A DNA stretch of 64,000 nucleotides, taken from contig CAISER010000006.1 of assembly GCA_903884375.1 (NCBI GenBank), forward strand, positions 1,080 to 65,079. Reading direction: 5' to 3'. Every line of letters starts with the position of its first letter. Within the stretch, counting starts at the first letter, position 1. The translations under genes and the position numbers were made by a program. Below, piece after piece: positions 27,502 through 42,240 of this stretch. The stretch is from Candidatus Collierbacteria bacterium. Lineage in GTDB: Bacteria; Patescibacteriota; Microgenomatia; UBA1400; MFAQ01. Below the pieces are notes generated by a model. That model was not told the origin of the DNA. It saw only the letters and a list, made by a program, of their open reading frames with translations, and ran no database searches.

Positions 27502-27576
27502 TGCCGGATCGTCTAATGGTAGGACGCCACCCTCTGGAGGTGGTTATTCTAGGTTCGAGTCCTAGTCCGGCAACCA
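27502..27576 (+). tRNA. tRNA-Gln, anticodon CUG, CCA encoded
   Basis: Manual cloverleaf: U1-A72 acceptor TGCCGGA/TCCGGCA, anticodon stem CCACC/GGTGG, loop CTCTGGA, T-arm CTAGGTTCGAGTCCTAG, short variable loop, terminal ACCA. Confidence 0.8.
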
Positions 27577-27689
27577 AGTTGGACGCTATCAGACCGTGAT
27601 GCCTAAAATCGGTTGATGCGTCCCACAAAAGCCCATTTTGTTTTTGGAAGTCTCGGACCGTACGCTCGTTGTCCAGCTATTTCTTTATT
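27568..27689. repeat. 122-bp direct repeat, copy 1; begins in the tRNA-Gln 3' end and abuts the stop of the metallophosphoesterase gene
   Basis: Identical to 34714-34835 over about 58 nt and about 43 nt (1 mismatch), separated by a 21-nt non-identical core (27626-27646). Confidence 0.85.
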
Positions 27690-28725
27690 ATTGAAGTAAA
27701 TATGTATCGGCGATATTTTCTGTGACTTTCCCGAGTACTGTCTTCACAAATTCTACCTTGGCATTATTAGTGGAGACTGTGACTCTCAAATATCCAGAGC
27801 CACCAATTATATTGCCGCTTGTATATCCATATTCACCTTTTGTGTTAACTATATCGCCTGGGTGACTCGGTTGAGGAAGAGTTTGATAAACGACACCATC
27901 TAATTCTTGTTTGGCATAGAAATGATCATGACCTTTGAATACTGCATTTACTTTGTTATCGACTAATAACTGATGGATTGGTTTTGACCAGCCTGATCTG
28001 TTGATTGTAAATCCATAACTACCATCGAGATTATTACCACCCCATTCATATAGTTTGGCAAATTCGACTCCACCTCTACCCTGGCTATCCCCACCAACAA
28101 GTTGATGAATAAATACAAATTTATATTTACTATTACTTTTTTCTAATGTGTTTTTGAGCCAATCATATTGTGTCTTTCCCAGCGTCCATTTCCATCCATA
28201 TGTGCCAGGCTTAGTGGTAGTGAAACTATATGGATCAAGAATGATAAATAAGGCATCGCTTTTGGTAAATGAATAATAATTTTTGTCAAACTGGCTTGGA
28301 AAATACTGGAGGCGTTGGGAGCGATTATTTGTTTCCCAACCGGCCTCGCCATCATGATTGCCACTTGCTAGATACAGGGGAATTGATGAACCCAATAGAT
28401 CGAAATATTTTTTCATTAGTTGATAACGATTAGCAAAGCTTGTACTATTTTTGGCTGGCTGTTTGTCGAGCATAAACGTATCACCAAGATCAATGAGAAA
28501 CGCTGGCTTGTCAGCGACTATGTTTTTCAATGTTTGGGAATAAACTGCCTCACTTGATTGCTCATCCATGTGGGGGTCAGCTTCAATGGCAAAACTAAAA
28601 GATTCTCCAGAACTAGCAGTTCGTAAACTATTGGGTATTTCGATAATATTTTTACTAAATACCCAAAATAATGAAATTCCGAGAATACCAAGAATTATTA
28701 ATAGAATGGTTTTATTTGACTTCAT
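27688..28725 (-). CDS. Secreted metallophosphoesterase (calcineurin-like), paralog B
   Basis: Signal peptide; motifs ADPHMD, GDTF, GNHD, GHDHFY; tandem paralog of the upstream gene. Confidence 0.75.
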   Translation of the reverse strand: MKSNKTILLIILGILGISLFWVFSKNIIEIPNSLRTASSGESFSFAIEADPHMDEQSSEAVYSQTLKNIVADKPAFLIDLGDTFMLDKQPAKNSTSFANRYQLMKKYFDLLGSSIPLYLASGNHDGEAGWETNNRSQRLQYFPSQFDKNYYSFTKSDALFIILDPYSFTTTKPGTYGWKWTLGKTQYDWLKNTLEKSNSKYKFVFIHQLVGGDSQGRGGVEFAKLYEWGGNNLDGSYGFTINRSGWSKPIHQLLVDNKVNAVFKGHDHFYAKQELDGVVYQTLPQPSHPGDIVNTKGEYGYTSGNIIGGSGYLRVTVSTNNAKVEFVKTVLGKVTENIADTYLLQ

Positions 28726-29788
28726 AAGTATAGATTGATTGGCCGTTGTTGTTTTGGCCGGATTTAATATAGTCTACCTTGACCGAGTCAGGGGAAACTG
28801 TCACATCTAAGAACCCGGAGTTTGGAAGAGTATCACCTGCTTTATAGGCATCTTTATTGAATGCGGTGAAAGTATCATCGGCTGGATTGGGAACTTCTTG
28901 ATAGATAACTCCATCGAGTTCTTGCTTTGCAAAAAGATGATCATGACCTTGAAAAAAGATAGTAACGCCGTTTTTGACCATCAATTGATGAATTGGTGTT
29001 CCCCAGCCTGGTCTCATTTTGTCGAATTCATATGTTCCGTTTGGACTATATCCTCCCCACTCGTAAAGCTTAGCCATCTCGACTCCACCACGACCAGTAC
29101 CGAGAACATGGTGAGTAAAAACAAACTTGTATTTTGCTTTGCTTTCTTCCAAGGTTTTTTTGAACCATTGATACTGTGTCTCTCCCAAGGTATTGTTCCA
29201 GAGATTTTGTTGTTTCTTCTCATTTTTTGCTCCAGCGACATTGTCCGCAGCAGTTTCCGTGTGCCAATAGTAATCAATTACGACAAATAAAGCATCTCCG
29301 TGAGTAAATGAATAATAACCGTTTTCTGCGCCAGGGGAGGTGAAGTATTTGGCTCGTGCATTTTGGGCAAGTATGGCCGGATTGGTATTTGTTCCATCGA
29401 GTAAATATTTGGCTTCTTGTTCATGATTGCCATTTACCAGATAAATTGGAATGGTGAGGGCACTTAAATAATTCTTTTGGTTGAGATATACCGAATCAAT
29501 GGCGCTTTGAGTGACATTGTTGCCTTCAATTTCTTTTTCGATGCTAAAGTCATCACCTAGTAGAAAGTAAAAATCGAGATTTGCTTTGTTTACATTTTGG
29601 AGGGTTGTTTTGTAAAGATCAGAATTAAACATTTTCCCAGGTCTTTCCGGGTGTGAATCTCCTTGAACTCCAAAAGAAAAGGTATCTCCGACAAGAAAAA
29701 AACTATTTCGATTTGCAATCCAATAATATGAAACTAAACATACTCCAACTAGTAATAAAAAAATGAGTATTATTGACTTATTTTTCAT
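28712..29788 (-). CDS. Secreted metallophosphoesterase (calcineurin-like), paralog A
   Basis: Signal peptide; motifs GDSHPE, LGDDF, GNHE, GHDHLF; overlaps the downstream paralog by 14 nt. Confidence 0.75.
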   Translation of the reverse strand: MKNKSIILIFLLLVGVCLVSYYWIANRNSFFLVGDTFSFGVQGDSHPERPGKMFNSDLYKTTLQNVNKANLDFYFLLGDDFSIEKEIEGNNVTQSAIDSVYLNQKNYLSALTIPIYLVNGNHEQEAKYLLDGTNTNPAILAQNARAKYFTSPGAENGYYSFTHGDALFVVIDYYWHTETAADNVAGAKNEKKQQNLWNNTLGETQYQWFKKTLEESKAKYKFVFTHHVLGTGRGGVEMAKLYEWGGYSPNGTYEFDKMRPGWGTPIHQLMVKNGVTIFFQGHDHLFAKQELDGVIYQEVPNPADDTFTAFNKDAYKAGDTLPNSGFLDVTVSPDSVKVDYIKSGQNNNGQSIYTYEVK

Positions 29789-30360
29789 TGAGCCAGATTG
29801 TTACAAGCAGTTCGACAATACTGATAGTCTCCACAAGCTAATCCAGTCTCGGCTGACTCGCAACACTGTTTGCAGGTATTTTGATCACCGCTGGCTGTGC
29901 AGGTAGAATAATTTCCATCGCGACCAAGTTTTGAAGAAATTTCAAATGTTTTTATGACTGTATTTTTTGTGTAGTCATAGGTAGCAGCAAAATCTCGACA
30001 GGCCTTGCGGACAGAGTCATCGGCAGCCAAACAATCACAACAATCTTTACTTGATCCTAGATCTTTCGTATTTTCGATACATTGACTATAAGTGGAATAT
30101 GTCACTTGAGTACCTGTTTGGCCGGTTGGTTTTGCTTGACCGTTAGTCTTTGGCTGTGCTGCCTGACTACCACCCTTGCTCTTTCCTTGACTGTTTGTTG
30201 GTGTTACTCCTTGGGTTACATTATTGTTATTCAAAACAGGAGCTGTCGAAGTTTTTTTTGTAAGTAGATTTCTTCCATACAAATCCCATGTTGCGCCTCC
30301 GAGAACAGCAACGAAGATAATACTTAAGATGCCAATAATTATTTTTTCTTTTTTGTTCAT
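29785..30360 (-). CDS. Hypothetical membrane-anchored Cys-rich protein
   Basis: 191 aa; N-terminal TM, polar low-complexity linker, about 14 Cys in the C-terminal 110 aa (CCDC, CKQCC); no family recognised. Confidence 0.45.
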   Translation of the reverse strand: MNKKEKIIIGILSIIFVAVLGGATWDLYGRNLLTKKTSTAPVLNNNNVTQGVTPTNSQGKSKGGSQAAQPKTNGQAKPTGQTGTQVTYSTYSQCIENTKDLGSSKDCCDCLAADDSVRKACRDFAATYDYTKNTVIKTFEISSKLGRDGNYSTCTASGDQNTCKQCCESAETGLACGDYQYCRTACNNLAQ

Positions 30361-30375
30361 TTTATGTATATTTAA

Positions 30376-31962
30376 TTATTGAAAAAGGAAGTCCGTATTG
30401 GCGACTGAAGGCATATTAATTTTTTCTGAGTAGAGGTATGCCGAAGTATCAGGACAAGTATAGCCATCAAGATTCTTAAGTTTTGTGAGAGCATCCTTTT
30501 GAGCTGTAGTTAAAGATTTGCCAACTTGGGCAAAAGCGGTGGCGTAGTAATAGGATATTTCACCATCCAGCTGACCATATTCTCTAGAGAGAGCAATTAC
30601 TTTAGCTTCATCAATTACGCTTGTTGTTAAGATTTTTCGGAGTTCTGTAGAGATGGCTCTTCTTTTCTCGACGATTCCAGTGATTGCGTTTTTTTGAGTA
30701 GCAACAAGGTTAGTAATAATTGGTTTTTGAGTTGCACTTAAGGCACTGATAAAGGCTTGACCTTGATCTCCTGTAATTGATTCATCAATCGTATAGCCGG
30801 CATTGCCTATGGCTGGAGCATCTTTGATATAAAAACCACCAAAGTAATCGGCTTGTCTCTCCGGACAAAAATAAGTATCAGCTTCAACATTGCCGGCGTA
30901 CCAGCCAAACATTTCACTTGCATAAGTCATCATTAAGACAGATTCGTCTCGAGTTAAGTTCACTTTATCTACTTGATCAGGAAGTATCGCCCATGAGGCA
31001 AAACCACCTTTAACCATAGTGTCGAAGTATGTTTTTTGTTGAGTTGTAAATGACTTGATTATTTCTCCAAATAGCTGTGCTCTTTGAAGACTAATCTTGG
31101 CATCTATTTCATATATGTCTGCGGAGTATTGCATAATGGCAGACTTGCTTAAACCGGTTGTTCCTGTTGGAATACTACCCGTAAGCTGGCGTCTAAAAGC
31201 AACCATCAGAGGAAATCTTTTGTAAGCGAATTCATTGACTAAGCTTGTTTGTGATTTGGCAAGTGCAGTCATCTTTGCCTTCTGGGTAGCGTTTAGGGTA
31301 TAAAGCACATTATTAGCCGAGTTGGTTACGAAATCCGTGTCATGACCTTTTCCGTTTGCTGTCAAATCTCTTAAATATTGAAAACCAAAATAATCCGAAA
31401 CCTTGCCTGGAGGTAGGAATGAGTCTGAACAAGTGTTGCCTGTTAAAAATCCAAGGCCATCAAAAGCTAGTGTATTTAGCTGAGCCTGATCGGAGATAGC
31501 TTGATCGATACTATAGCCACTTCCTGCGTTCCCCGTAGGATTCTGACTTTTTACCTGACCACTTCCGGTGGCTTGTGGACCACCATTAGAGTCATTTTTA
31601 CAGGCTAGTACACCAGGTTTGTCGTCACATGTTCCTTTGGCAATAATTTCCCTGTCTGTGAATTCACACGCATCTCCAATTGCCTTACCTGTGCAAGCAA
31701 CTATTGCGGCCTCTGGTGGCATATTGCCGGAATTATTTTCTGATGTAATTTGGTTTTTTCTCGATAGATACCAATAACCTCCTGTAATAATAATTGCCGT
31801 GACTAGTATGCCGGAAATTAAATATATTGGTTTGATGGATATTTTTTTTGCTAGATTGACTGTCTTACTAACAAAGGTTGTTTTTTGAGTATTTTGATCC
31901 TTTGGAATATCCGTATTAACTAATGGTTTATTAGGTTCAACAGGAATTATATTTTCGTTCAT
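30376..31962 (-). CDS. Hypothetical large membrane-anchored extracytoplasmic protein
   Basis: 528 aa; N-terminal TM, Cys-containing region CTGKAIGDACEF...TCDDKPGVLACKND; no family recognised. Confidence 0.45.
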   Translation of the reverse strand: MNENIIPVEPNKPLVNTDIPKDQNTQKTTFVSKTVNLAKKISIKPIYLISGILVTAIIITGGYWYLSRKNQITSENNSGNMPPEAAIVACTGKAIGDACEFTDREIIAKGTCDDKPGVLACKNDSNGGPQATGSGQVKSQNPTGNAGSGYSIDQAISDQAQLNTLAFDGLGFLTGNTCSDSFLPPGKVSDYFGFQYLRDLTANGKGHDTDFVTNSANNVLYTLNATQKAKMTALAKSQTSLVNEFAYKRFPLMVAFRRQLTGSIPTGTTGLSKSAIMQYSADIYEIDAKISLQRAQLFGEIIKSFTTQQKTYFDTMVKGGFASWAILPDQVDKVNLTRDESVLMMTYASEMFGWYAGNVEADTYFCPERQADYFGGFYIKDAPAIGNAGYTIDESITGDQGQAFISALSATQKPIITNLVATQKNAITGIVEKRRAISTELRKILTTSVIDEAKVIALSREYGQLDGEISYYYATAFAQVGKSLTTAQKDALTKLKNLDGYTCPDTSAYLYSEKINMPSVANTDFLFQ

Positions 31963-32006
31963 ATTACTAGATTATCAAATGATAACTTGGAAAATGCTTA
32001 GAATAT

Positions 32007-33092
32007 TTAAGATCTTTTGAGGGGCAAATTGATAACAAAAGTAGTGCCCATATTTATTGTACTTTCAACCAGGATTTGACCATGATGCTGTTTAATTATT
32101 TCATTTACGATTGAAAGACCAAGACCGTAGCCTTTTGTAATTGTCTTTGATCGCGAATTATCAGCGCGATAAAAACGCTCAAATATTTTATTAAAATCGT
32201 TTTTTTCTATTCCGATACCAGTGTCTTTAATGGTAAATGTTAAATGATTATTATTTGACGTTAAGTTTATATATATTTTCCCTTTGTCTTTGTTGTACTT
32301 AATTGAATTTTCAAGTAGATTATCAACCATCTCTCTTAAGGCTTCTTCGTTTCCTACTAATACAACTTGTTCCAGCTGATGTTTAATTGAAATCTTTTTC
32401 TTGTCAGCTTGTTTTGTAAACCGAGATACACTATCTAAAATGATTTTGTCTAACCTTACCTCTTGAAAAGAATTTCTATCGATATCATTACTAAATTTTT
32501 CGACCAGTAACAAACTGTTTGCTAATTTTTCCAATGTGTTCACGTCTTCCAAATTACTTTCAAGAAGATCCTTAATTTTTTTGTAAGGAATTGGACCCAT
32601 CATCAAGGTGACCTCTAAGGCGGTTTTGAGATTGGCGAGAGGAGTACGTAATTCATGAGAAGCACTAGCAACAAAAATTTTCTGGTCTTCTAGCATCTTT
32701 TCAATTGGCTTTAATGTCTTTCCTGCTAGAAGATATGATGCACTCGCCGAAACACCGAGAACAATCAGATTGGCAAGGAAAAGAGATAAAAGCAACTGGT
32801 TTCGGGAGATTATGTAATCTTCTCTAATATTATCGTCCAGTGGTGGATCAACTAGCTCTCTTTGAAGATCTTTCGGGTCCGGTAATGGTTTTGGCAACTC
32901 AATCCTTAGTCTGTCGGCGACTATTTTTTGTTGTTCTCTTCTCGCCCCTCTTAGTAACTCAGAATTTAAAGAAGTATAGACAACAATGCTAAATATGAAA
33001 GCGACAATCATAAGTATCACGAGATACCATGCTGTTAGTTGGACTCTAGCTCTGGTGAAATTATTTTTCATTGTTATCAACTTTATATCCAA
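32007..33092 (-). CDS. Sensor histidine kinase (HisKA/HATPase_c), island copy
   Basis: Two TM helices, H-box SHELRTPL, N/G boxes (DTGIGI, GYGLGLSIV); paralog of the 42241-43254 gene. Confidence 0.85.
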   Translation of the reverse strand: MDIKLITMKNNFTRARVQLTAWYLVILMIVAFIFSIVVYTSLNSELLRGARREQQKIVADRLRIELPKPLPDPKDLQRELVDPPLDDNIREDYIISRNQLLLSLFLANLIVLGVSASASYLLAGKTLKPIEKMLEDQKIFVASASHELRTPLANLKTALEVTLMMGPIPYKKIKDLLESNLEDVNTLEKLANSLLLVEKFSNDIDRNSFQEVRLDKIILDSVSRFTKQADKKKISIKHQLEQVVLVGNEEALREMVDNLLENSIKYNKDKGKIYINLTSNNNHLTFTIKDTGIGIEKNDFNKIFERFYRADNSRSKTITKGYGLGLSIVNEIIKQHHGQILVESTINMGTTFVINLPLKRS

Positions 33093-33747
33093 AACCTCTG
33101 ATCGTTTGTATTATTGATTTTGATTTTGGAAATGGTTTGTCAATTTTTTCTCGAAGATAATTTATGTATACTTCAACAGTGTTTGGGAGAACATCATCTT
33201 CATAGCTCCATACATTTTGTATTATTTCGTCTTTTGATTTCACTTTACCTTTGTGTTTTAATAAAAACTCCAACAACGAATACTCCCTTTTTGAGAGAGT
33301 AATCTTTTTTTTGTTTCTACTTACTTCGTGTCTAATTGTGTCAACAATCAAATTACTTTGTTGAAGCACTCCTTCTGTTTGAGTTAGAGGTCTTCGTGAC
33401 AACGCCCTAATTCTAGCTACTAGCTCAGCAAAAACAAATGGTTTGACAAGATAGTCATCTGCGCCCGCGTTTAAACACTCCACCTTGTCACCTGTTGCAC
33501 CTTTGGCTGTTAGTATCAGAATTGGAGTGTGTATATGTTCTTTATCTCGTAAAATATGAATTATTTCAATTCCTGATAGTTTTGGAAGCATGAGATCTAT
33601 TACCAATACATCGTATTTTTCTGTAGTAGCAAGATCCAAACCAGCTTCCCCATCAAACGCCAAGTCGACAGCCCAAGACTCTATCTCGAGACCTGTTTTG
33701 ATAAACTGGGCAATTTTATGCTCGTCTTCAATGACTAATACCCTCAT
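33061..33747 (-). CDS. OmpR-family response regulator, island copy
   Basis: Receiver domain (DD..D phosphoacceptor, K) plus winged-helix trans_reg_C; highly similar to the 43256-43930 regulator. Confidence 0.9.
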   Translation of the reverse strand: MRVLVIEDEHKIAQFIKTGLEIESWAVDLAFDGEAGLDLATTEKYDVLVIDLMLPKLSGIEIIHILRDKEHIHTPILILTAKGATGDKVECLNAGADDYLVKPFVFAELVARIRALSRRPLTQTEGVLQQSNLIVDTIRHEVSRNKKKITLSKREYSLLEFLLKHKGKVKSKDEIIQNVWSYEDDVLPNTVEVYINYLREKIDKPFPKSKSIIQTIRGFGYKVDNNEK

Positions 33748-33783
33748 TATTGATATTGTATAGCTTCAAAGCTTAAGTATTGC

Positions 33784-34044
33784 TTAAAAAGCAAAATCTT
33801 TCTCTTCAATATTATCTTTACTACCAATATTTATCTCTTGGTCTAACTCCTTCAATTCATTATCTAAGTCGTTGTCTGCATTTGTGACAATACTATTGGT
33901 TTCTTCAGTAGTTTTTTCAGGACTGGATATATCCGATTGAGTTTCCACATTCTTAACTTTTCCTGACTCAATATTTGGTTTGATAAATATATATCCTGAG
34001 ATGAACAACCCTAAAATTATTAAAATAATTAGTATTTTATTCAT
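33784..34044 (-). CDS. Hypothetical small secreted acidic protein
   Basis: 86 aa; signal/TM followed by a D/E/N-rich tail. Confidence 0.35.
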   Translation of the reverse strand: MNKILIILIILGLFISGYIFIKPNIESGKVKNVETQSDISSPEKTTEETNSIVTNADNDLDNELKELDQEINIGSKDNIEEKDFAF

Positions 34045-34051
34045 ATTTTTG

Positions 34052-34576
34052 TTATTTTGTGCTTTTAAATTGGTCTCTTAGACTGGCAATGTCTGGCTTG
34101 ACCGTTGCCTTAACAAAGTTCCAAAAATCAGTATTGGCGCTGTTCAGTACTTCTCTTTGAGCTTTCATTTCAGTCACTGAAGCTTTGTAAGCTCCGTCTG
34201 AGTCTCCACACGCTAGATCTTTAGTAGCAGAAACTTTTGTTTTTAATGATGAGTATGCAGATTGCCATGCGTTCATCTTCTCTGTTAGAGATGTGAGATC
34301 TGCCTTGAGTTTTTCTGAACCGAGACCCTTATCTTCTACTTTGGTGATTATCTCGTTTAAACGGTCAATAACTGATTGGTGTCTTTTTCCAATTGACTCG
34401 TTTGTGGTGAGCTTTGTGTAGAGATCGTTTACTTTTGAGGTAATTCGAGTGCATCGAACCTCCTTCGTTTCGCTATTCACACCTCCTAGATTTTCAGCAA
34501 AGACAGAAGTAGCTGAAAGGTTTAATAGTAACCCGCCTGCGATAACTGCAGAAGTGATAATAGTTTTTTTGTTCAT
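34052..34576 (-). CDS. Hypothetical secreted coiled-coil protein; start placed at the internal Met preceding the signal peptide
   Basis: ORF-track start (34723) would place 49 aa upstream of a clear signal peptide (MNKKTIITSAVIAGGLLL) and inside repeat copy 2; Met-50 at 34576 is favoured. Confidence 0.4.
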   Translation of the reverse strand: MNKKTIITSAVIAGGLLLNLSATSVFAENLGGVNSETKEVRCTRITSKVNDLYTKLTTNESIGKRHQSVIDRLNEIITKVEDKGLGSEKLKADLTSLTEKMNAWQSAYSSLKTKVSATKDLACGDSDGAYKASVTEMKAQREVLNSANTDFWNFVKATVKPDIASLRDQFKSTK

Positions 34577-34713
34577 ATTCTTTCTTTTGATAATTATTAA
34601 CAATATGGTTGATAATAAAGCCTGTTGGCTTAGAAGATGCTTGGAATTTTTCCGACTGTTTTTCGGCTCTGTCGGCTTCTGTAGAAAATGAGGCTGTGGT
34701 GAGAATCCTTGCT

Positions 34714-34835
34714 CGGCAACCAAGTTGGACGCTATCAGACCGTGATGCCTAAAATCGGTTGATGCGTCCCAGAGAAGCTCATTTCGTAATTGGAAGTCTC
34801 GGACCGTACGCTCGTTGTTCAGCTATTTCTTTATT
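34714..34835. repeat. 122-bp direct repeat, copy 2; carries a degenerate tRNA-Gln T-arm remnant at its left end and overlaps the 3' end of the serine recombinase gene
   Basis: See copy 1; the 20 nt upstream (GAATCCTTGCTCGGCAACCA) match the tRNA T-arm/acceptor 16/20. Confidence 0.85.
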
Positions 34836-36136
34836 TTGGAGGAGACAAACTTTCTGTTGTGGAGATAAAGTTGGTAGTTAAAAAGTTGTATTAGTTGACG
34901 TTTTCTCACAGGATCTCCACTCTTGAGTACATGCCTCGCATAATCCCTGACGTCCATTATTTTCTCATCTGGGTCAATGTCTTGTCTTAACAGGACATCA
35001 TCTCTAACCTTTCGGTATTCATCCATTCCTTCGCGGATTTCTTTTGACAAGTTTAAGATTTGTGGGTGGGCTATGTAGGTAAAATTGATATACCTTAATA
35101 GCTCCATCGACAAACCTTCTTCGCTGATGTAATCTTCTCGGCAATCGTAATCTACCTGTCGACTGCAATGATAGTAAATGTGATATTTATCCTCTCGATA
35201 TTTTCTTTTTCTTAACTTGTCTTCCCCAATTACATTCGAGCCACAGTTGGCACATTTGAACAAGCCTTTGAAGATGAACATTTTACTTCCCCATTTTGAT
35301 TTTGCCGGAACTATCAGATGTTTTTGGACAATGTCGAACACTTCTTTGGTTATTAATGGTTGATAGGAACCCTTGTACCAACCACCACTTCCGACAGGAT
35401 ACTCAAATTCCCCATAGTAGAAAGGATTTTTTAACATTAGGTAGACTTGACTAAGGCTAACTGCTGAACCAGATTTATTTGTAAATCCTTTTTCTTCCAA
35501 CCATTTTTTAAGTTTCCGTCCTGAAGTTCCTTCAGTAGCAACCTTTTGAAACGCCTCGGCAACGAGTGGAGCTCTATCAGGATCGATAATAATATCCTTC
35601 GTTCCGTTAAAGGCTCTATTGAAATACCCAAGAGGTGCCATCCCTGGTCGAAATCCCATCTCACATTTTGCTCGAATACCTCTTTTGACGTTTAGCCCTT
35701 TTTGATCGTTTTCCAATTTTGCTTGAGAACAAAGGATCATCAACAGAAACTTCTCGTTCGGATTATTCGAAAACATTTGGGAGAATGTCTTAATTTGAAC
35801 AAGTTTCCCTTGATCCATCAAATCTACTATTATTCCCAAGTCTCCTGCATTACGACTTAATCTGTCTGGAGCCCAAGTCAGTATCCCTGTGAACTTCCCG
35901 GCACCGATATCATCCAGTAGCCCCATGAATACCGGCCTCTTACTTGATATTTTGGCTGAATGGCTTTCTCTGCGAATTTCTTTTACAAATAGTCCCTCTC
36001 TTTTGGCAATCTCACCCATTTCTTTAACCTGAGATTCAATTGACATGGCTTGTCTTTCATCGTCTTCACTCGACTTTCTTGCGTAAAGGCAGTAAACAAT
36101 TTCTTTTTGTGGTTCTATTGCGGTTCTCTGTTCCAT
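34823..36136 (-). CDS. Large serine recombinase (resolvase/invertase catalytic domain plus recombinase and zinc-ribbon domains)
   Basis: N-terminal YARKSSEDDERQAMSIESQ catalytic serine motif; C-terminal Cys cluster (CANCGS...CSRQVDYDC). Confidence 0.8.
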   Translation of the reverse strand: MEQRTAIEPQKEIVYCLYARKSSEDDERQAMSIESQVKEMGEIAKREGLFVKEIRRESHSAKISSKRPVFMGLLDDIGAGKFTGILTWAPDRLSRNAGDLGIIVDLMDQGKLVQIKTFSQMFSNNPNEKFLLMILCSQAKLENDQKGLNVKRGIRAKCEMGFRPGMAPLGYFNRAFNGTKDIIIDPDRAPLVAEAFQKVATEGTSGRKLKKWLEEKGFTNKSGSAVSLSQVYLMLKNPFYYGEFEYPVGSGGWYKGSYQPLITKEVFDIVQKHLIVPAKSKWGSKMFIFKGLFKCANCGSNVIGEDKLRKRKYREDKYHIYYHCSRQVDYDCREDYISEEGLSMELLRYINFTYIAHPQILNLSKEIREGMDEYRKVRDDVLLRQDIDPDEKIMDVRDYARHVLKSGDPVRKRQLIQLFNYQLYLHNRKFVSSKIKK

Positions 36137-36204
36137 CTATTGGTATCCATTAGTATGGTCAAGGATACCGCAAGGTTTGTGTAAGTCTAGTCCAAAGATT
36201 AAAT

Positions 36205-36732
36205 TTAGTTAGTTGGATTTTCTCGCGAATCTTCGGATACACGCTCTATAAACTGCCTTAGTCTCTCTAATTCGGCATCCATCTCTTCGGAATCTTTATT
36301 CTTTTTGTATCTACCGATAGAGTTAATAAGAGTTCCCGCTACGCCAATTGGTATTAAACCCTTAAAAACAAGCAATAAAACCGACGCAATCATGCTTTGT
36401 TTGTTTATTCCTTTAATACTTTGCTCGATTCCCGCCTGTTCGTTTGGTGATAATAATATTCGCCTTTGGGTATAGCTTGAGTGATGATTGTTGAGCCAAT
36501 AATAGATAGAGGTAGGATGCCTATCTTTTATTAAACCTATTAGCTGTGACTCAGCCAAATCATTTATAAAATCGACTCCGTCCTTTAAGGCATTATTAGT
36601 TTTCTCCTTAAAGTCTGCATCATCCTCTCGCCAACGATAGTAGCTGGCACGGCTTATTCCTGCTTTTTGGCATGCCACCTGTACTATTGGAGTGGTCTTT
36701 AATTGTTCAACTATACTATCCCTGTCTTTCAT
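36205..36732 (-). CDS. HTH-domain protein resembling a phage terminase small subunit or transposase-type HTH
   Basis: VACQKAGISRASYYRWREDDADF helix-turn-helix near the N-terminus; C-terminal TM/coiled coil; overlaps the upstream gene by 17 nt. Confidence 0.45.
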   Translation of the reverse strand: MKDRDSIVEQLKTTPIVQVACQKAGISRASYYRWREDDADFKEKTNNALKDGVDFINDLAESQLIGLIKDRHPTSIYYWLNNHHSSYTQRRILLSPNEQAGIEQSIKGINKQSMIASVLLLVFKGLIPIGVAGTLINSIGRYKKNKDSEEMDAELERLRQFIERVSEDSRENPTN

Positions 36733-38065
36733 GGAGTATTCCTTTTAATCCGGTAAGGTTTTCCCAACGTTTTTTGATTACTTCTGCATATATGGGTGAT
36801 TTTTCCATGATGTAGCATCTTCGTTTCATTTTGGTGGCTGCAATTAAGGTTGATCCACTACCTCCAAAGGGTTCGATGATGAGATCACCTCGTTTTGTAA
36901 GGACTTTGATATATGGAATCAATATCTCCGTGGGCTTTGTACCAAATACAACTCCTTGTCCGGAATGTTTCTCATCCGAAGCGTTGAACTCGATGAAATC
37001 TGTAGGTTGGGTTTTCTTACCTTTCTCGTAGCCTTCCCACTGTGGTTTGCCAGAGATGGCGTACAGGGCTGTTTCGTATTCTTGTTGAAGTCCATCTTGT
37101 TCCTCCTCATTGTTGTACTCAATATCAGAATCTTGTGATGCCCCAACCATGGCAATGTCGTGTTTGGAAAAGAATTTGTATTTGGCAGAGAAACCTTGGT
37201 GTCTGTTGGGTAAATGCCAGACGATCATGTTTTTCACCTTCCAATGTTTTTCCATCTCACCCCAGATGGTTCTTAAGTTCTTCCAGTTTTCGTAAACAAT
37301 GATGGAAAAGTGTTCTTTTTGAATCTGTGAGACGTTTTCCATCCATTTTTCCGTGAAGTCGGGCGGAAGACTTTCGGTTTCCAGGTATCTTCTGTCCCTT
37401 TTGGCTCCGAATCCTGTAACTGCTTTTCCGTGCTTGGTTTTTCCATTTAAATAATCCAAAATATATGGCGGATCGGTGAAACACATATCCGCTTTTTCTC
37501 CATCCATCATTTTTTGGATATCCTCAATTGCAGTCGAGTCGCCACACATAAGTCGACTTCCATTAAGCTCGTATATTTCTCCTTTCTTGATATTAATTTC
37601 CGTAATATCTAACTTCTTGAGTTCTTTCTGAAGGTCAAACTGTTCGGGAATGTCCACGACATCAAATATCTGGTCCAGTTCTTCGCTTGAAAATCCAATA
37701 TTGTTTAGGATTGACGGATCATACGTCGCCAACATATCCCAATCCCATTCGCCGATATTTTTATTTAATCGAAGATTTAGCTCTTTCTCAACCTCAAGAT
37801 CGGGAATATTGACATAAACTGCCGGTATAGTTTCGATTCCAAGCTCTTTTGCGATCTCTAGTCGGAAATGCCCGCCAATGACAATGTTTTTCCTTTCCGG
37901 AGCTTCATTGACAATAATGGGATCAACCAGACCAAATTTTGTAATACTTTCTTTAAGCTGGTCTGCCGCGTTTTTATCGTGCTTCCTGGGATTATAAACC
38001 GCAGGGTTTAAATCGCTTACTTTGATATATGTGACGGAAATATCCCGTCGGAGTTGTTTTTGCAT
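36716..38065 (-). CDS. ParB-like nuclease domain fused to an N6/N4 DNA methyltransferase (orphan MTase)
   Basis: N-terminal ParB/Srx motif (IVIGGHFRLEIAKELG); C-terminal MTase with FTDPPY catalytic motif and SAM-binding FGGSGS. Confidence 0.8.
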   Translation of the reverse strand: MQKQLRRDISVTYIKVSDLNPAVYNPRKHDKNAADQLKESITKFGLVDPIIVNEAPERKNIVIGGHFRLEIAKELGIETIPAVYVNIPDLEVEKELNLRLNKNIGEWDWDMLATYDPSILNNIGFSSEELDQIFDVVDIPEQFDLQKELKKLDITEINIKKGEIYELNGSRLMCGDSTAIEDIQKMMDGEKADMCFTDPPYILDYLNGKTKHGKAVTGFGAKRDRRYLETESLPPDFTEKWMENVSQIQKEHFSIIVYENWKNLRTIWGEMEKHWKVKNMIVWHLPNRHQGFSAKYKFFSKHDIAMVGASQDSDIEYNNEEEQDGLQQEYETALYAISGKPQWEGYEKGKKTQPTDFIEFNASDEKHSGQGVVFGTKPTEILIPYIKVLTKRGDLIIEPFGGSGSTLIAATKMKRRCYIMEKSPIYAEVIKKRWENLTGLKGILHERQG

Positions 38066-38432: not shown

Positions 38433-38870
38433 CTACTTAGGTTGGGCGCTTGGGGTGGCCATGAATCTTCCAAGAGAAATCGACTGAGCTGTAATACTAC
38501 CGTTGGTGTTTTGTGTACCAATGGCCATGACATCATCTCCTGTTTTTAAATCGGTGATGGAAGCTTCCTGAGTTTTGTTTATTTTGGTCTGGGCGGAAAT
38601 AATGATTATCTTATTACTTCCATCAGCCGACTGAATGGTAATACTAGTAGCATCTTGACTGATAATTTTGCCCGAAACTGGGGCATTGCCTCTTATAGCA
38701 CCATTTCTTTGACCGACTCCGTTTTGTAGAGTTGTTCCATTCGCCTGTCTATTCACGCCTCGCATAAACTGTGAGGTCGTCTTTGATTTTTGATAGGTAA
38801 GACCCCCGAAGAACCCCAATGCCAGAGTAAGTATGCCGGTGATAACCGAGATTATGATTGTTTTATTCAT
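38433..38870 (-). CDS. Hypothetical secreted protein, co-operonic with the MacB-like transporter
   Basis: 145 aa, signal peptide; shares a QRNGA[IV]RG motif with the periplasmic region of the adjacent permease. Confidence 0.4.
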   Translation of the reverse strand: MNKTIIISVITGILTLALGFFGGLTYQKSKTTSQFMRGVNRQANGTTLQNGVGQRNGAIRGNAPVSGKIISQDATSITIQSADGSNKIIIISAQTKINKTQEASITDLKTGDDVMAIGTQNTNGSITAQSISLGRFMATPSAQPK

Positions 38871-38911
38871 AGTTTTGTTTATAGATTATTAACCTGAATA
38901 TTGGCTGAAGG

Positions 38912-40132
38912 TTATTCGTATCTTAGTGCCTCAATTGGCTGGAGATTTGAAGCACGTCTGGCCGGATACCAACCGAAGACAATACCAATAGCTGCCGAAA
39001 CAAAGAAAGCTAAGGCAATTGATTCAATAGAAATATAGAATGAAGAGGAATTAAATTTTGCGTAGATCAGCGAAGCAAGAATGCCAAAAATTATTCCTAA
39101 TATACCTCCAACAAAAGTAAGAATAACCGATTCGGCAAGAAATTGAGTGATAATAGTCTTTTTCTTGGCACCCAAGGCTTTACGCAATCCAATTTCGCGA
39201 GTTCTTTCGGTAACGGTGACCAGCATGATGTTCATAATGCCGATTCCGCCAACTAACAGAGAAATGGCCGCGATGCCGGTAAGTAGGGAAGTAAAGGTAC
39301 CCGTGACCGCCGAAGCGGTGCTAAGTATGTCTTCTTGGGACATAATAGAAAAATCTGCAAGAGTTGGATCGGTAAGTTTGTGGCGTTCTAATAATAAATA
39401 TCCGACTTCGTTTCTGGCTTGATTCATAACATTAGCATTTATTGCTTCTATTGCTATAGAGGAAAGATTTTTGGCTCCAAAAAGGAGTTTTTGGGCTGTA
39501 GAAAGAGGAACATATATAAGATCGTCTTGGTTCATTCCGGAACCACCCTTCGAAGTTGTTACACCAACAATAGTAAAGTTTTGACTACCAATCCTTAACG
39601 ACTGACCAACGGGATTGGCATTCTCGCCAAACAAATCGGTAACCACGGTTGGTCCCAACACAGCTACTCTGGTAGTCGAAGCGACATCTCTTTCGGTGAT
39701 GAAGGTGCCGCTCGCCATAGTAACACTATGTACCGACAGGTATGCCGGAGTGGCGCCAATTATCGAAGTGTTGGTATTACTTTTTCCGGTAACCACTTGT
39801 GACCTTCCTTGATATTCAGGAGAAACGTTCTTGACGGTCGTTATCGCCGGAGATGTTTTGACAGCCTCGGCATCAGCATTGGTAAGAGTGGTTCCGCCGC
39901 CGGCAGCACCACGAACAGCACCATTTCTTTGACGACTGGGAGATACGGTTAACAAGTTTGATCCAAGGGACTGAATCCTTGACTGAACTGCTTTTTGACT
40001 TGATTGACCTAGGGAGACAAGAGCAATAACGGAGCCAATACCAATAACAATTCCTAGAATTGCAAGGCCTGTACGAAGTTTGTTTAGTCTTAGAGTGCCG
40101 ACACTTTCGATGAGTTGTTCCGTTAATTCCAT
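38912..40132 (-). CDS. ABC transporter permease, FtsX/MacB family (start moved to an internal Met)
   Basis: The ORF-track start overlaps the upstream ATPase by 107 nt; Met-37 (MELTEQ...LRLNKLRTG) sits one nt after the ATPase stop and matches the typical MacB N-terminus. Confidence 0.75.
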   Translation of the reverse strand: MELTEQLIESVGTLRLNKLRTGLAILGIVIGIGSVIALVSLGQSSQKAVQSRIQSLGSNLLTVSPSRQRNGAVRGAAGGGTTLTNADAEAVKTSPAITTVKNVSPEYQGRSQVVTGKSNTNTSIIGATPAYLSVHSVTMASGTFITERDVASTTRVAVLGPTVVTDLFGENANPVGQSLRIGSQNFTIVGVTTSKGGSGMNQDDLIYVPLSTAQKLLFGAKNLSSIAIEAINANVMNQARNEVGYLLLERHKLTDPTLADFSIMSQEDILSTASAVTGTFTSLLTGIAAISLLVGGIGIMNIMLVTVTERTREIGLRKALGAKKKTIITQFLAESVILTFVGGILGIIFGILASLIYAKFNSSSFYISIESIALAFFVSAAIGIVFGWYPARRASNLQPIEALRYE

Positions 40133-40133
40133 A

Positions 40134-40847
40134 TTATTTAATTTTGTGACGACGCTGTGTATGGCTAATTGTGTCGCTAACAATTTTTCCATCGCGGATA
40201 AGGATAATTCTTTTGGCGTGCTCGGCGATATCTGGTTCATGAGTAATCATGACGATAGTATGACCTTTGTCATTTAGATCTTGAAATATATCCATTATTT
40301 CTTCGGCCTGGGCAGAGGCGATATTACCAGTGGGCTCATCGGCAAGAAGGAGGGCGGGATCCATAACTAATGATCTAGCTATGGCTACACGTTGTTGTTG
40401 ACCGCCAGAGATTTGGTTGCTGGTGTGAAACAGACGATCGCCAAGACCAACCATTTCAAGAAGTTGTTTGGCTTTGGCTTCTCTTTTTTCTTTGGGTACT
40501 CCGCCATAAGCCATGGGTAGCATAACGTTTTTTAATGTCGTTGTTCGAGGAAGAAGATTAAATGCTTGAAAAATGAAGCCAATTTTTCGATTTCGAATAT
40601 CTGACAATTGGTCGTCATTTAACTTTTCTACATTTTCACCATCAAGAATATACTCACCTTTTGTGGGCTTATCTAGTGCTCCCAATATATGCATTAAAGT
40701 GGATTTGCCTGATCCTGATGGACCCATGATGGCGACAAACTCTCCTTTATTTATTTTGAATGAAACATTGTCAACGGCTTTTGTCTCGACGATATCTGTC
40801 TTGTAAATCTTGGAAAGGTGTTTCGCCTCAATAATCGTGTTATTCAT
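40134..40847 (-). CDS. ABC transporter ATP-binding protein, MacB/LolD-like
   Basis: Walker A GPSGSGKST, signature LSGGQQQRVAIAR, Walker [11 protein letters not shown]. Confidence 0.9.
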   Translation of the reverse strand: MNNTIIEAKHLSKIYKTDIVETKAVDNVSFKINKGEFVAIMGPSGSGKSTLMHILGALDKPTKGEYILDGENVEKLNDDQLSDIRNRKIGFIFQAFNLLPRTTTLKNVMLPMAYGGVPKEKREAKAKQLLEMVGLGDRLFHTSNQISGGQQQRVAIARSLVMDPALLLADEPTGNIASAQAEEIMDIFQDLNDKGHTIVMITHEPDIAEHAKRIILIRDGKIVSDTISHTQRRHKIK

Positions 40848-40851
40848 ACGT

Positions 40852-42210
40852 TTAGAAACCTTGTCTACCCTGGAATCCCCCTCCTAATCCTCCTGCACCA
40901 CCGAATGGAGAGCTACTTTCAGAGTTCCTGGTGGTAGTGGTATTTGAAGAGGCATTGGAGATGGTTGAGGTAATGACAACATCGCCTTCAGAGAGGCCAG
41001 ATTTTATTTCTGTTTGAGTGTCGTTTGAGTTTCCAATTTCAACAGGCACATCTGATATTTTGCCATCTTTTTGGACTTGAACATAGGAGCCGTTGGTCGA
41101 TGACTGGATTGCACTGGATGGCACCAACAAGACATCTGTTTTTGTTGAAGTAATAATATTGGCACTAACAGCCATATTTGTAAATATGTTTAGAGTAGTT
41201 TTGTCCAGAAGAATAGTGGCAGAGTAAGAAGTAACTCCTTGACTAACACTACCGCTAGTATTTACCGCAAGTACTGTTCCCGTGAGACTGTTATCTGGGA
41301 ATGCATCTAGGGTCAGAGTAACTTTTTGGCTGGAAAGTATAGAGGTAACATCAACTTCCGTGAGAGAAACTGTTGCCTGATATTGACCAAGTGGATTTTT
41401 TATGGCGCCAATTTTTTGGGATGAAACCGAAACTGAGTTGCTGGTGCTGTCTGTTCCCGAACTTACAGTAATTGATGCGGATGCGGCATTGCCAACAGTT
41501 ACTCCGGGAGCAAGGGTAAGATTGTTTAATATTCCTGATGCGGGTGCGATTACTGTGCGACTGACTTGCTGATAGCTTCTGTATGCGGCACTGGCTTTGG
41601 CATTGGCAAGAGCAATGTTGGTATTTGATATCGAGCTATTGGTTATGGCGGCATTATTGGCAGCAATTGCCTCTTCATACTGTTTATCAACAATAAGTAG
41701 TTCATTCTCTGTATAAGGATTTTTTGTGGCCGGATTCCACCCTCCAGAATGGGCATCGCGTTTGGCAGACTCGGCGTTCTTTAAGTCATCTTTTTTTTGT
41801 AACATCGTGATATTGTCGGTTTCTTTTTGTGTCAGCGCATTTTTGACGTTTACAAGAGCTTCTTGATAGTTATTCCAAGCTGTCGTTTGGGTTTCTTGGC
41901 CGACATCGTCAAGCGATAACTCTGCCAATTTTTGACCTTTGACCACCGTGTCGCCATTTTTGACAAAAACTTTATTTACTGTGCCACTAGCACCCGTAGT
42001 GATATATGTGGTGTCTCCTGAAGTGATGGTGCCTGACGCAGAAATGGTGGACATTAGGGTGCCTTTTTCGACTGTGGCTGTTTGATAGGTAACCTTACTC
42101 GATCCGGAAAATATTTTAGTGACTGCAAATAATACCAAACCAAGAACGATACAAGGTATGATGATTTTTGTAACGATAGGTAGTTGGAGATATCTTTGTT
42201 TTAGGTTCAT
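40852..42210 (-). CDS. Efflux periplasmic adaptor (HlyD/MacA membrane-fusion protein family)
   Basis: 452 aa; N-terminal TM, lipoyl/barrel-sandwich and long helical hairpin, Gly-rich C-terminal tail. Confidence 0.7.
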   Translation of the reverse strand: MNLKQRYLQLPIVTKIIIPCIVLGLVLFAVTKIFSGSSKVTYQTATVEKGTLMSTISASGTITSGDTTYITTGASGTVNKVFVKNGDTVVKGQKLAELSLDDVGQETQTTAWNNYQEALVNVKNALTQKETDNITMLQKKDDLKNAESAKRDAHSGGWNPATKNPYTENELLIVDKQYEEAIAANNAAITNSSISNTNIALANAKASAAYRSYQQVSRTVIAPASGILNNLTLAPGVTVGNAASASITVSSGTDSTSNSVSVSSQKIGAIKNPLGQYQATVSLTEVDVTSILSSQKVTLTLDAFPDNSLTGTVLAVNTSGSVSQGVTSYSATILLDKTTLNIFTNMAVSANIITSTKTDVLLVPSSAIQSSTNGSYVQVQKDGKISDVPVEIGNSNDTQTEIKSGLSEGDVVITSTISNASSNTTTTRNSESSSPFGGAGGLGGGFQGRQGF

Positions 42211-42240
42211 TTTTTGTATTTTATGTGGGTAATCTGAATA

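Follow-up and report, generated by a model that had tools for sequence, protein, structure and literature searches.

A repeat-bounded, tRNA-associated cassette in a Candidatus Collierbacteria genome: a candidate mobile regulon for a cell-surface phosphoesterase complex

We analysed a stretch of 64,000 nucleotides (the window) from contig CAISER010000006.1 of Candidatus Collierbacteria bacterium (assembly GCA_903884375.1). It contains a cassette of approximately 7 kb (27693–34713), bounded by two direct repeats of about 125 nt. All of the genes lie on the minus strand, as do the protein domains and promoter elements described below. Read in that direction they encode a 174-aa secreted helical protein (34052–34576), identified from its sequence; an 86-aa anchored protein with an acidic tail (33784–34044); an OmpR/PhoB-family response regulator (RR, 33061–33747); a sensor histidine kinase (HK, 32007–33092); a 528-aa protein (30376–31962); an anchored 191-aa protein (29785–30360); and two membrane-anchored metallophosphoesterases, the A-type MPE_A (358 aa, 28712–29788) and the B-type MPE_B (345 aa, 27688–28725). 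The open reading frames, coordinates, overlaps and gaps listed in the initial annotation were all found as described: the HK and 528-aa genes are separated by 44 nt and the 528-aa and 191-aa genes by 15 nt, while the 191-aa gene overlaps MPE_A by 4 nt and MPE_A overlaps MPE_B by 14 nt. The sequence suggests that the true start of HK is likely to be the ATG at 33071. The reading frame listed for the 174-aa protein (223 aa) begins too early, the signal peptide starting from the ATG at 34576. No homologues of this protein were found in related loci, nor of the 86-aa protein in 85 related loci, and both are therefore lineage-specific. The cassette contains no pst or phoU genes and, according to its reading frames and Pfam matches, no metal-efflux genes. 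There is strong support for all four cargo products (the 528-aa and 191-aa proteins, MPE_A and MPE_B) being membrane-anchored on the outside.

The left repeat (27568–27692) opens with the final 9 nt of a tRNA-Gln(CTG) gene (27502–27576, plus strand; found by both ARAGORN and Rfam), and alignment shows that its far end contains what is left of the 3′ terminus of a serine-recombinase ORF. The right repeat (34714–34838) shares the last 16 nt of this ORF. The pair was located by a repeat search (90% over 143 nt) and by alignment, and two probes of 27–31 nt each match the window exactly twice, against 0 matches expected. Alongside, and outside the repeat-bounded cassette, is a neighbouring mobile element (34823–38065, minus strand), in which Pfam identifies the large serine recombinase (34823–36136), a 175-aa protein and a ParB-N/DNA methylase fusion. 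The direct repeats beside tRNA-Gln and the adjacent recombinase element bear out the earlier proposal that the cargo was acquired horizontally. The arrangement resembles tRNA-associated islands and cis-mobilisable elements, whose repeat-flanked cargo has no integrase of its own: the segment adjoins the tRNA 3′ end at 27576, the repeats include that end, and the recombinase element stands in tandem. Orthologous modules in other genomes likewise adjoin tRNAs, repeats or integrase genes, and orthologous cassettes sit at other tRNAs. It differs from such islands in that so little of the tRNA is repeated, in that the recombinase is of the serine type and lies just outside a segment which itself contains no integrase, and in that there is no contrast in base composition with the flanks (GC 0.34–0.40 inside versus 0.33–0.44 outside).

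The 528-aa protein has an N-terminal membrane anchor (aa 45–69, 31756–31830), seen as a hydrophobic sequence and as an AF2 helix covering the same residues, followed by a 4-Cys β mini-domain (aa 84–123, 31594–31713) identified from alignment and AF2 strands. In Methanofastidiosum the mini-domain is carried by a protein of the 191-aa type, where a single ORF (locus L005) matches both queries. The remainder is a core of 381 residues consisting of two repeats, repeat 1 (aa 148–345, 30928–31521) and repeat 2 (aa 346–528, 30379–30927), each of which starts with a loop (DSFLPPGKVxDYFGFQYLRD and DTYFCPERQxDYFGGFYIKD, respectively) and continues into LTXXQ helical hairpins. The two halves align with each other (hhalign probability 97.5%, E 5e-12), identifying the core as an internal tandem duplication. 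The protein contains 7 Cys, and alignment of the core reveals just one invariant His and no evident metal motif.

The initial annotation treated the 528-aa and 191-aa proteins as uncharacterised. This is correct in the sense that neither matches a curated family above threshold, and neither falls into a well-characterised family with an unrelated role; however, they are not orphans, since they belong to a large family spanning domains of life, and their domains are fused in other lineages. The core family comprises about 1,000 clusters at 50% identity, with no curated annotation, and is present in 494 of 185,579 species genomes, from both Bacteria and Archaea. The sole match of the 528-aa protein to a curated family is to LTXXQ (PF07813), at 17.4 bits against a threshold of 24.3, and Foldseek found no fold match for it in the PDB. 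When the repeat-2 helices are isolated, 13 of 16 members match Pfam LTXXQ at E ≤ 1 (best 1.5e-6); a PDB profile search with the repeat-2 segment gives Spy as a weak match (E 0.3–0.8), and some core segments match Metal_resist. The motifs LNATQK, FTTQQK, LSATQK and LTTAQK, all of LTXXQ type, lie at the starts of AF2 helices. At this level the helical parts of the core seem to bear a weak resemblance to Spy/CpxP (LTXXQ).

Like Spy, CpxP and ZraP, then, the 528-aa protein is extracytoplasmic and all-helical, has LxxTQK-type motifs at its helix starts, and is encoded close to an OmpR-type two-component system (TCS). Spy and CpxP form a homodimeric cradle, which the tandem duplication would mimic as a pseudo-dimer. 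Unlike these small, soluble, periplasmic proteins, the core is a membrane-anchored single chain of two repeats, each with an additional and nearly invariant Asp/aromatic loop; it also lies below the Pfam threshold, lacks a PDB fold match, and is linked to phosphoesterases.

The 191-aa protein has an N-terminal hydrophobic helix (residues 3–28 in AF2) and a Cys-rich helical domain (aa 90–188, 29797–30093) that contains 10 Cys invariant in the alignments, out of 12 in the whole protein. AF2 predicts this domain with a pLDDT of about 90. There are 54 homologues, all unannotated; Foldseek gave no PDB match. Fusions of the Cys-rich domain with the core, on its N- or C-terminal side, occur in at least 8 loci and in 3 further database proteins.

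Both phosphoesterases match Pfam Metallophos (PF00149), with E values of 1.3e-10 for MPE_B and 1.6e-11 for MPE_A; the two scores, 42.4 and 45.4 bits, are well above the cut-off of 21.5. They are 39% identical and, as had been claimed, true paralogues with all the metal motifs (DxH, GD, GNH[DE], H and GHxH) intact, here in the forms GDSHP/ADPHM, LGDD/LGDT, GNHE/GNHD, THH/IHQ and GHDH, which are conserved in 27 homologues. MPE_A has more than 5,700 homologues, and B-type orthologues occur in many phyla at 40–63% identity; the paralogues did not prove to be ubiquitous chromosomal genes in relatives that lack the island. Among solved structures, the MPE profile comes closest to the purple acid phosphatases (E 6e-7) and PhoD, which belong to the same calcineurin-like superfamily, have the same set of motifs and are likewise extracytoplasmic. 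Assignment to PhoD (PF09423) is rejected, as the scores are 25.5 bits for MPE_A and 16.4 for MPE_B against a cut-off of 27 and the N-termini contain no twin-arginine motif, that is, no Tat signal. The MPEs are also not purple acid phosphatases: the anchor leads straight into the catalytic domain with no N-terminal Fn3-like domain, the motifs are DSH/DPH rather than DxG, and GDDFS/GDTFM replaces GDxxY, with its Fe(III)-tyrosinate tyrosine. Orthologues from outside the CPR do carry Pur_ac_phosph_N (PF16656). Invariant family-specific GRGG and YEWGG motifs and an ancient A/B pairing further separate the family from both groups.

The pairing of a small Cys-rich helical domain with MPEs recalls acid sphingomyelinase, where a small disulfide-rich helical domain accompanies an MPE catalytic domain acting on a surface or lumenal substrate. 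One could therefore imagine phosphodiesterases that cut the head groups off phospholipids in neighbouring or host cells, to which the core and the Cys-rich domain present the lipid in the manner of the saposin domain. Lipid synthesis is generally lacking in CPR and DPANN organisms, PEBP (the phosphatidylethanolamine-binding protein family) recurs as a fusion partner or neighbour of the core, and MMPL and GT39 genes stand alongside in Chlorohelix, all of which would suit such lipid harvesting. We nevertheless consider it improbable. Foldseek of the 191-aa model returned neither a saposin nor any other match, the Cys pattern differs from that of saposins, and no similarity to acid sphingomyelinase is detectable in sequence or fold, the components here being separate polypeptides. 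Nothing inside the cassette points to lipids, and the system is also found in free-living Verrucomicrobiota, Bacteroidota and methanogens, which make their own.

The RR contains a receiver domain (Pfam Response_reg, 93.9 bits) and a winged-helix output domain (Trans_reg_C, 88.2 bits). HK has two TM segments separated by an outer loop of about 55 aa; Pfam finds HisKA and HATPase_c in it, and no PAS or HAMP domain. Every NCBIfam equivalog score for the TCS is under its cut-off. PhoBR identity is rejected (PhoB 187.6 bits versus 296.2, PhoR 176 versus 334.2, and no PAS in the kinase). The best NCBIfam match of the RR is to the CopR/CusR-type heavy-metal subfamily, at 216.1 bits and below the cut-off of 279.2; with HK at 150 versus 292.6 and its short outer loop, a CopR/CusR/CzcR heavy-metal TCS is rejected as well. 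To call the TCS a close paralogue of the pair resident at 42241–43930 was an overstatement, as the RRs are 60% and the HKs only 37% identical, compared to 76% and 62% for orthologues in other genomes. The TCS was co-transferred with the cargo and not copied from the resident pair. The regulators that adjoin the core vary by lineage, and include OmpR and LytTR TCSs, ECF sigma factors and ArsR. Together with a TCS that is not PhoBR, this variety agrees better with the sensing of a substrate or a stress than with classical Pi starvation.

The ArsR-type and ECF regulators, the weak Spy, LTXXQ and Metal_resist matches, the LTXXQ motifs, and the leaning of the RR towards CopR/CusR/CzcR raise the question whether the module responds, like Cpx or Zra, to envelope or metal stress. 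In that case the 528-aa protein would be a tethered Spy/CpxP/ZraP-like holdase or metal-binding modulator of the kinase, whose short outer loop makes an accessory sensor plausible (CpxP–CpxA and ZraP–ZraS are established precedents); the Cys-rich protein would bind thiophilic metals, and the MPEs would be auxiliary, for example by setting free phosphate that precipitates metals, or by mending polymers of the envelope. This is unlikely, though a better candidate than lipid harvesting. All such matches fall under curated thresholds, the core offers one invariant His and no obvious metal motif, the cassette is without metal-efflux genes, and identities of 50–77% across phyla are unusual for generic chaperones. 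The tight and ordered linkage to two specific MPE subtypes would also be left unexplained.

A conserved putative RR box, YYAAGC-N5-YYAAG, was found 11 nt ahead of a −10 hexamer. It occurs upstream of the 174-aa gene (P1, CCAAGCATCTTCTAAG, 34629–34644, followed after 11 nt by TATTAT); upstream of the RR gene (P2, TTAAGCAATACTTAAG, 33772–33787, then TACAAT, 7 nt ahead of the ATG), where a Pho-box-like direct repeat had been suspected upstream of 33747; and in the gap between HK and the 528-aa gene (P3, CTAAGCATTTTCCAAG, 31986–32001, then TAATCT, 6 nt ahead of the ATG). The window contains 4 matches against 0.6 expected, three of which are these module promoters. In orthologous modules of three other genomes the box occupies the same two positions, ahead of the RR and core genes; in loci L004/L010, L006 and L014 it lies 23–59 nt upstream of them and accounts for 9 of the 16 matches in 1.07 Mb of loci. 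A TAnnnT hexamer follows exactly 11 nt after the box in all 8 sites. There is thus strong support for the predicted operator standing in for the −35 element at three promoters: that of the RR itself, that of the upstream gene pair and that of the 528-aa gene. The earlier reading of the locus as a single operon has to be given up, because one such promoter sits in the HK–528 gap and a third further upstream. Since the operator is shared by the RR and cargo promoters, the RR probably autoregulates and switches on 528–191–MPE_A–MPE_B. The cargo transcripts are apparently near-leaderless. There are parallels with the PhoB/PhoR regulon in the OmpR-family regulator, the direct-repeat operator of 11-bp period at the −35 position, the secreted phosphatases under control and the probable self-regulation; however, RR and HK fall under the PhoB/PhoR cut-offs, HK lacks PAS, the operator bears no relation to the Pho box of E. 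coli, and pst and phoU are missing from the cassette.

The order core, Cys-rich protein, MPE_A, MPE_B recurs in other CPR genomes, and the module is also present in a Methanofastidiosum archaeon, with the Cys-rich protein upstream of the core. Of 36 well-flanked core loci, 19 have MPEs of this family next to the core, and 8 of these 19 have both A and B types. In the reverse direction, starting from MPE_A homologues on long contigs, all 3 of the loci sampled independently had the core and both MPE types adjacent. Other partners found fused or adjacent to the core are likewise extracytoplasmic: domains handling esters or anions (PEBP, SGL, sulfatase and arylsulfotransferase) and surface-anchoring modules (SLH, PG_binding_1 and a T9SS tail). 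The order of the genes is not due to chance, and there is strong support for the core, the Cys-rich domain and the A/B MPE pair being linked in evolution, as a set found in both Bacteria and Archaea. Both the 528-aa protein and the 191-aa protein look like obligate companions of the MPE pair; about half of the well-flanked core loci lack an MPE within 8 kb, implying a role for the core beyond serving MPEs. These MPE-less loci, the mobility of the cassette and the lineage-specific 86-aa and 174-aa genes might suggest that unrelated genes for secreted proteins are merely hitch-hiking on islands and that their adjacency is meaningless. Such a reading is already disfavoured, and has very little probability in view of the core–Cys domain fusions, the gene order kept across domains of life, the consistent MPE-to-core linkage and the operator boxes common to the RR and cargo promoters.

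We therefore favour, with a probability of about 0.5, the view that the cassette is a regulon complete in itself, which moves horizontally and serves a cell-surface phosphoesterase complex. Its function is most likely that of a substrate- or stress-induced complex hydrolysing phosphoesters at the cell surface, whose biochemistry and substrate we infer as follows. MPE_A and MPE_B, distantly related to purple acid phosphatases and PhoD, would be phosphomono- or diesterases with a dinuclear metal centre that cleave an external phosphoester such as an organic-P polymer, a nucleotide or a phosphodiester. In the 528-aa protein, Spy/CpxP-like units would form a pseudo-dimer within one chain, with two Asp/aromatic loops; together with its Cys-rich partner this protein may form a non-catalytic subunit for substrate capture or presentation, or for enzyme folding or metal loading. 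A further role of the 528-aa protein may be feedback on the kinase, in analogy to CpxP and ZraP. For an organism of reduced metabolism the pay-off could be the scavenging of phosphate or nucleosides, and phosphate or nucleotide scavenging is plausible by analogy.

A more tentative proposal, which we hold at rather less than even odds, is that the core, the Cys-rich domain, MPE_A and MPE_B constitute a previously undescribed multi-subunit ecto-enzyme that has spread horizontally across Bacteria and Archaea, with the Spy/CpxP-like pseudo-dimer as its obligate structural or substrate-presenting subunit and each repeat docking one MPE paralogue. If true, this ecto-enzyme would represent a new protein family, and a new organisation of phosphoester hydrolysis outside the cell in anoxic microbial communities, CPR and DPANN symbionts among them.

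The six genes of the cassette all lie on the minus strand, positioned as the initial annotation had described, with 4-nt and 14-nt overlaps and 15-nt and 44-nt gaps at their junctions. Pfam and NCBIfam bear out the gene types it assigned: an OmpR-type response regulator (RR), a HisKA/HATPase kinase (HK) and two calcineurin-like phosphoesterases (MPE_A and MPE_B). The two-component system (TCS) and the MPEs are ordinary kinds of protein. The 528-aa and 191-aa proteins, as had been noted, match no known family above threshold in these databases, the sole hit being to LTXXQ at 17.4 bits (cut-off 24.3). We regard the cassette as a secreted-phosphatase module under the control of a regulator, and there is a realistic chance that it constitutes a new ecto-enzyme system of several subunits. 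The observations of the initial annotation stand, and its interpretation as a horizontally acquired scavenging or surface-remodelling module is supported in part.

The TCS is not PhoBR, which is ruled out by scores below the curated NCBIfam cut-offs; the equivalog models for PhoB/PhoR, CusR/CusS, RppAB, WalK and others all remained under cut-off. The outer loop of the kinase is only about 55 residues long, and Pfam gave no PAS or HAMP domain match. The TCS had been called a close paralog of the resident chromosomal pair at 42241–43930. The two pairs are indeed paralogous, but only moderately close (60% identity for RR and 37% for HK). The island RR and HK are 76% and 62% identical, respectively, to orthologues in other genomes, and are thus closer to these than to the resident pair, which implies that the regulator travelled with its cargo. 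The resident RR (43256–43930) is the first gene of its own export operon (38433–43930, minus strand), which also contains the resident HK (42241–43254), an HlyD-like adaptor (40852–42210), an ABC ATPase (40134–40847), a MacB/FtsX permease (38912–40240) and a DUF5666 protein (38433–38870).

Alignment of the module promoters with those of two orthologous modules in other genomes, L004 and L006, revealed a conserved direct repeat, YYAAGC-N5-YYAAG, with an 11-bp period, which we call the RR box (putative response-regulator operator). There are four RR boxes in the window against 0.6 expected, three of them at module promoters on the coding (minus) strand: at 34629–34644, at 31986–32001 within the 44-nt gap between HK and the 528-aa gene, and at 33772–33787, upstream of 33747, where a Pho-box-like direct repeat had been proposed as a check. 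In the related loci the box is rare (only 16 copies in 1.07 Mb), and 9 of the 16 lie 23–59 nt upstream of an RR gene or of a gene for the conserved core of the 528-aa protein (in L004/L010, L006, L014 and copies of the window's own contig). The spacing from the box to a TAnnnT hexamer is exactly 11 nt at all eight sites, and the ATG follows the hexamer after 6–9 nt at the RR and core genes of the window (33748–33787 and 31951–32001), L004 (8179–8223 and 9960–10003) and L006 (216–260 and 2003–2030). No Shine-Dalgarno sequence precedes the start codons at these promoters. Because the start codons are so close to the –10 hexamer, the mRNAs are probably leaderless or near-leaderless. The geometry matches that of PhoB/OmpR-type activation, where the operator stands in for the –35 element. 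The conserved box and its fixed –10 spacing imply that the cassette is not the single operon originally suggested, and is instead a small regulon, with a putatively autoregulated TCS and a dedicated promoter inside the 44-nt gap. Upstream of the resident TCS operon there are TAAG repeats that resemble the island RR box and are not identical to it.

The 528-aa protein consists of a membrane anchor (residues 45–69), a four-cysteine β mini-domain, a linker, and an all-helical core of about 381 residues. In the family alignment the core is unusually conserved, with dozens of invariant residues. It is an internal tandem duplication: hhalign aligns residues 148–345 with residues 346–528 over 147 columns (probability 97.5%, E 5e-12). 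Each repeat contains a D[ST][FY][LF]xPxxxxD[YF]FGxxY[LI][RK]D loop, followed by helices starting LxxTQK. Of 16 family members, 13 match Pfam LTXXQ (best E 1.5e-6) and 3 match Metal_resist in the helical part of repeat 2; a profile search of the PDB with this part lists Spy over the full length, with an E value of only 0.3–0.8. The whole protein found no match in sequence and profile searches of the PDB, and its model, compared with the PDB using Foldseek, gave nothing beyond meaningless helical-bundle hits. Speculatively, the core could be a single-chain analogue of the Spy/CpxP dimer, with two repeats in one chain in place of two subunits. A less likely rival reading is that the module serves a Cpx/Zra-like metal or envelope stress response, with which the weak LTXXQ, Spy and Metal_resist matches would agree; it leaves the ordered linkage to two MPE subtypes unexplained.

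The databases contain more than 2,293 relatives of the 528-aa protein at 50–77% identity, and an exhaustive profile search gave 1,036 core clusters at 50% identity. The core is present in 494 of 185,579 species-representative genomes (roughly 0.3%), among them CPR, DPANN, Methanofastidiosum, Methanomicrobiales, Methanolobus, Bathyarchaeota, Verrucomicrobiota, Planctomycetota, Chloroflexota, Acidobacteriota, Desulfobulbaceae, Bacteroidales and one Clostridia isolate. It has no Pfam or NCBIfam model and no solved relative, and the literature searched does not describe the family or the module. Ca. Chlorohelix allophototropha, a phototrophic member of the Chloroflexota that was cultured from a boreal lake, encodes a homologue 75% identical to the window core, a "hypothetical protein" in RefSeq, on its 375-kb plasmid NZ_CP128401.1 (L001/L091); genes for a YbhB/YbcL PEBP, a GT39 glycosyltransferase and an MMPL transporter lie downstream. 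Such identity between phyla suggests that transfer among members of lake communities was recent. This replicon was the sole match among plasmids, and the phage collection gave none. Besides the Ca. Chlorohelix enrichment, culturable carriers of a homologue include Methanolobus sp. ZRKC2 and Wukongibacter baidiensis.

In other loci PEBP (YbhB/YbcL), Lcl_C, SGL β-propellers, arylsulfotransferases and a sulfatase are fused with the core or encoded next to it, and the surface-anchoring domains SLH, PG_binding_1, T9SS tail and Ig-like are fused with it. The adjoining regulators include ECF sigma factors, Ser/Thr kinases and ArsR-type proteins. We infer that the common theme of these partners is extracytoplasmic handling of phosphate or sulfate esters, under an outside sensor that is specific to the lineage.

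The 191-aa protein comprises an anchor, a low-complexity linker and a helical domain of about 100 residues with ten invariant cysteines (KDCCDC...CRD...CKxxC...CGDxxxCRxAC), referred to here as the Cys domain and predicted by AlphaFold2 with a confidence of about 90. Sequence and profile searches of the PDB with this protein, and a Foldseek search of the PDB with its model, gave no neighbor. The Cys domain is inserted between the mini-domain and the core in three database homologues of the 528-aa protein (P0103, P0113 and P0115). It is N-terminal to the core in Methanoregulaceae, Micrarchaeota, Acidobacteria, Desulfocapsa, Desulforhopalus and a deltaproteobacterial MAG, and C-terminal in one Methanomicrobiales MAG. 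In Methanofastidiosum, the four-cysteine mini-domain is carried by the 191-type protein and not by the core protein. Such Rosetta-stone fusions point to a single functional unit made up of the 528-aa and 191-aa proteins.

The two MPEs are paralogues (39% identical) with all metal-binding motifs intact, as first described. Among solved proteins, purple acid phosphatases (E 6e-7) and PhoD (E 5e-4) come closest to them; PDB sequence and profile searches with MPE_A singly gave nothing. Pur_ac_phosph_N is present in the non-CPR orthologues. Identification as purple acid phosphatases or PhoD is ruled out by motifs and thresholds, the defining features of both being missing. The core is followed immediately by orthologues of both subtypes, 40–73% identical to the window MPEs, in CPR genomes, Methanofastidiosum, Verrucomicrobiota, Firestonebacteria and others. 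Among the 36 core loci with at least 4 kb on each side, an MPE of the window's family is present in 19, both subtypes in 8, an OmpR-type TCS in 12 and the Cys domain in 9. In the reverse direction, starting from MPE_A homologues on three long contigs, the core and adjoining A and B MPEs were found in all three, accompanied by a LytS/LytTR system in two and by no adjacent regulator in the third. Taken both ways, this synteny indicates that the A/B duplication is older than the spread of the module, and that the MPE pair is more dependent on the core than the core is on the MPEs. Mere hitch-hiking of genes is an unlikely rival reading: about half of the 36 loci do lack an MPE, but all three contigs sampled in reverse have the core.

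In all four cargo proteins (genes at 27688–28725, 28712–29788, 29785–30360 and 30376–31962) a membrane anchor at the N-terminus leads straight into a [FYT]W-x(2-4)-[SNG][RK]N motif, in the versions FWVFSKN, YWIANRN, TWDLYGRN and YWYLSRKN. The same motif is found in CPR homologues in A1, A3 and A4, and when every ORF of the window was scanned strictly it turned up in module proteins only. It may serve as a shared signal for sorting or assembly, or as a point of contact with the short-loop kinase. To judge from their family, the MPEs would be phosphomono- or diesterases with a dinuclear metal site, acting outside the cell. The core and Cys domain might bind the substrate or mature the enzymes, and might possibly report to the short-loop kinase; both suggestions are speculative. 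As the two core repeats parallel the two MPE subtypes, the analogy suggests one enzyme per repeat. A different analogy, with the saposin and MPE parts of acid sphingomyelinase, gives lipid harvesting as an unlikely rival reading, which would account for a helical Cys-rich domain beside an MPE. The tight association of an unannotated, widely transferred core/Cys-domain family with an ancient pair of surface phosphoesterases, under clean regulatory logic with a ready-made regulator and operator, offers a testable handle on the uptake of phosphorus or other building blocks by ultra-small symbionts and anaerobes. For organisms almost without genetic tools, the module further supplies a compact inducible promoter/regulator pair.

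The proposed horizontal acquisition of the cargo is upheld by direct repeats of about 125 nt that bound the cassette (27568–27692 and 34714–34838; 90% identity over 143 nt in the repeat search), and by the similarly mobile appearance of orthologous modules. The left repeat begins in the last 9 nt of a tRNA-Gln gene. The right repeat and the gene for a large serine recombinase overlap by the final 16 nt of that gene, so that the left copy keeps a remnant of that gene end. The recombinase belongs to a neighboring element (34823–38065, minus strand) that also encodes a 175-aa family-less protein and a ParB-N/N6-N4 DNA methylase fusion; no flanking repeat of its own, and no third repeat copy bounding it, was found in the window. 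This arrangement suggests either insertion of the cassette between the tRNA and an element already present, or a joining of the two in tandem. The base composition of the cassette is no different from that of its flanks. As RNA the repeat is not notably structured (z about –1), except for one 14-bp hairpin in each copy (27581–27622 and 34727–34768; GGACGCUAUCAGACCG...CGGUUGAUGCGUCC), which may act as a recombination site or, between the tRNA and the convergent gene, as a terminator for both directions.

The L006 module has a 76-nt repeat (93% identity) and four copies of a 34-nt element on its flanks, and a fragment of a tyrosine recombinase lies immediately beyond. In L004, 108 nt separate the end of the module from the 3′ end of a tRNA-Asn, beyond which is an rve-type gene; upstream of the module's RR is a degenerate copy of that tRNA half, aligned locally over 35 gapped columns with several mismatches. 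A search for long flanking repeats in L004, L008, L009 and L018 found none. Further CPR modules abut tRNA-Val, tRNA-Ser, tRNA-Gln or tRNA-Asn. L006 is a 7.7-kb contig (CAYWBR010000108.1) labelled uncultured Bacteriovorax sp., whose module is 57–73% identical to CPR versions and shares their RR boxes; mis-binning, or a transfer into the genome of a predator, may explain the label. Two short independent assemblies of the window's locus (L086 and L087) break inside the kinase gene and inside MPE_A, consistent with assembly trouble from paralogous TCS and MPE copies.

Elsewhere in the window, a tRNA-Glu (11738–11812) and a bacterial class A RNase P RNA (58494–58810; 113.5 bits, just over the gathering score of 100) provide housekeeping context. 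A 176-aa protein (44115–44645, minus strand) is built from three zinc-ribbon units and has a match to the topoisomerase-type C4 zinc finger; its gene contains internal direct repeats of about 159 nt (families D3, D4 and D10).
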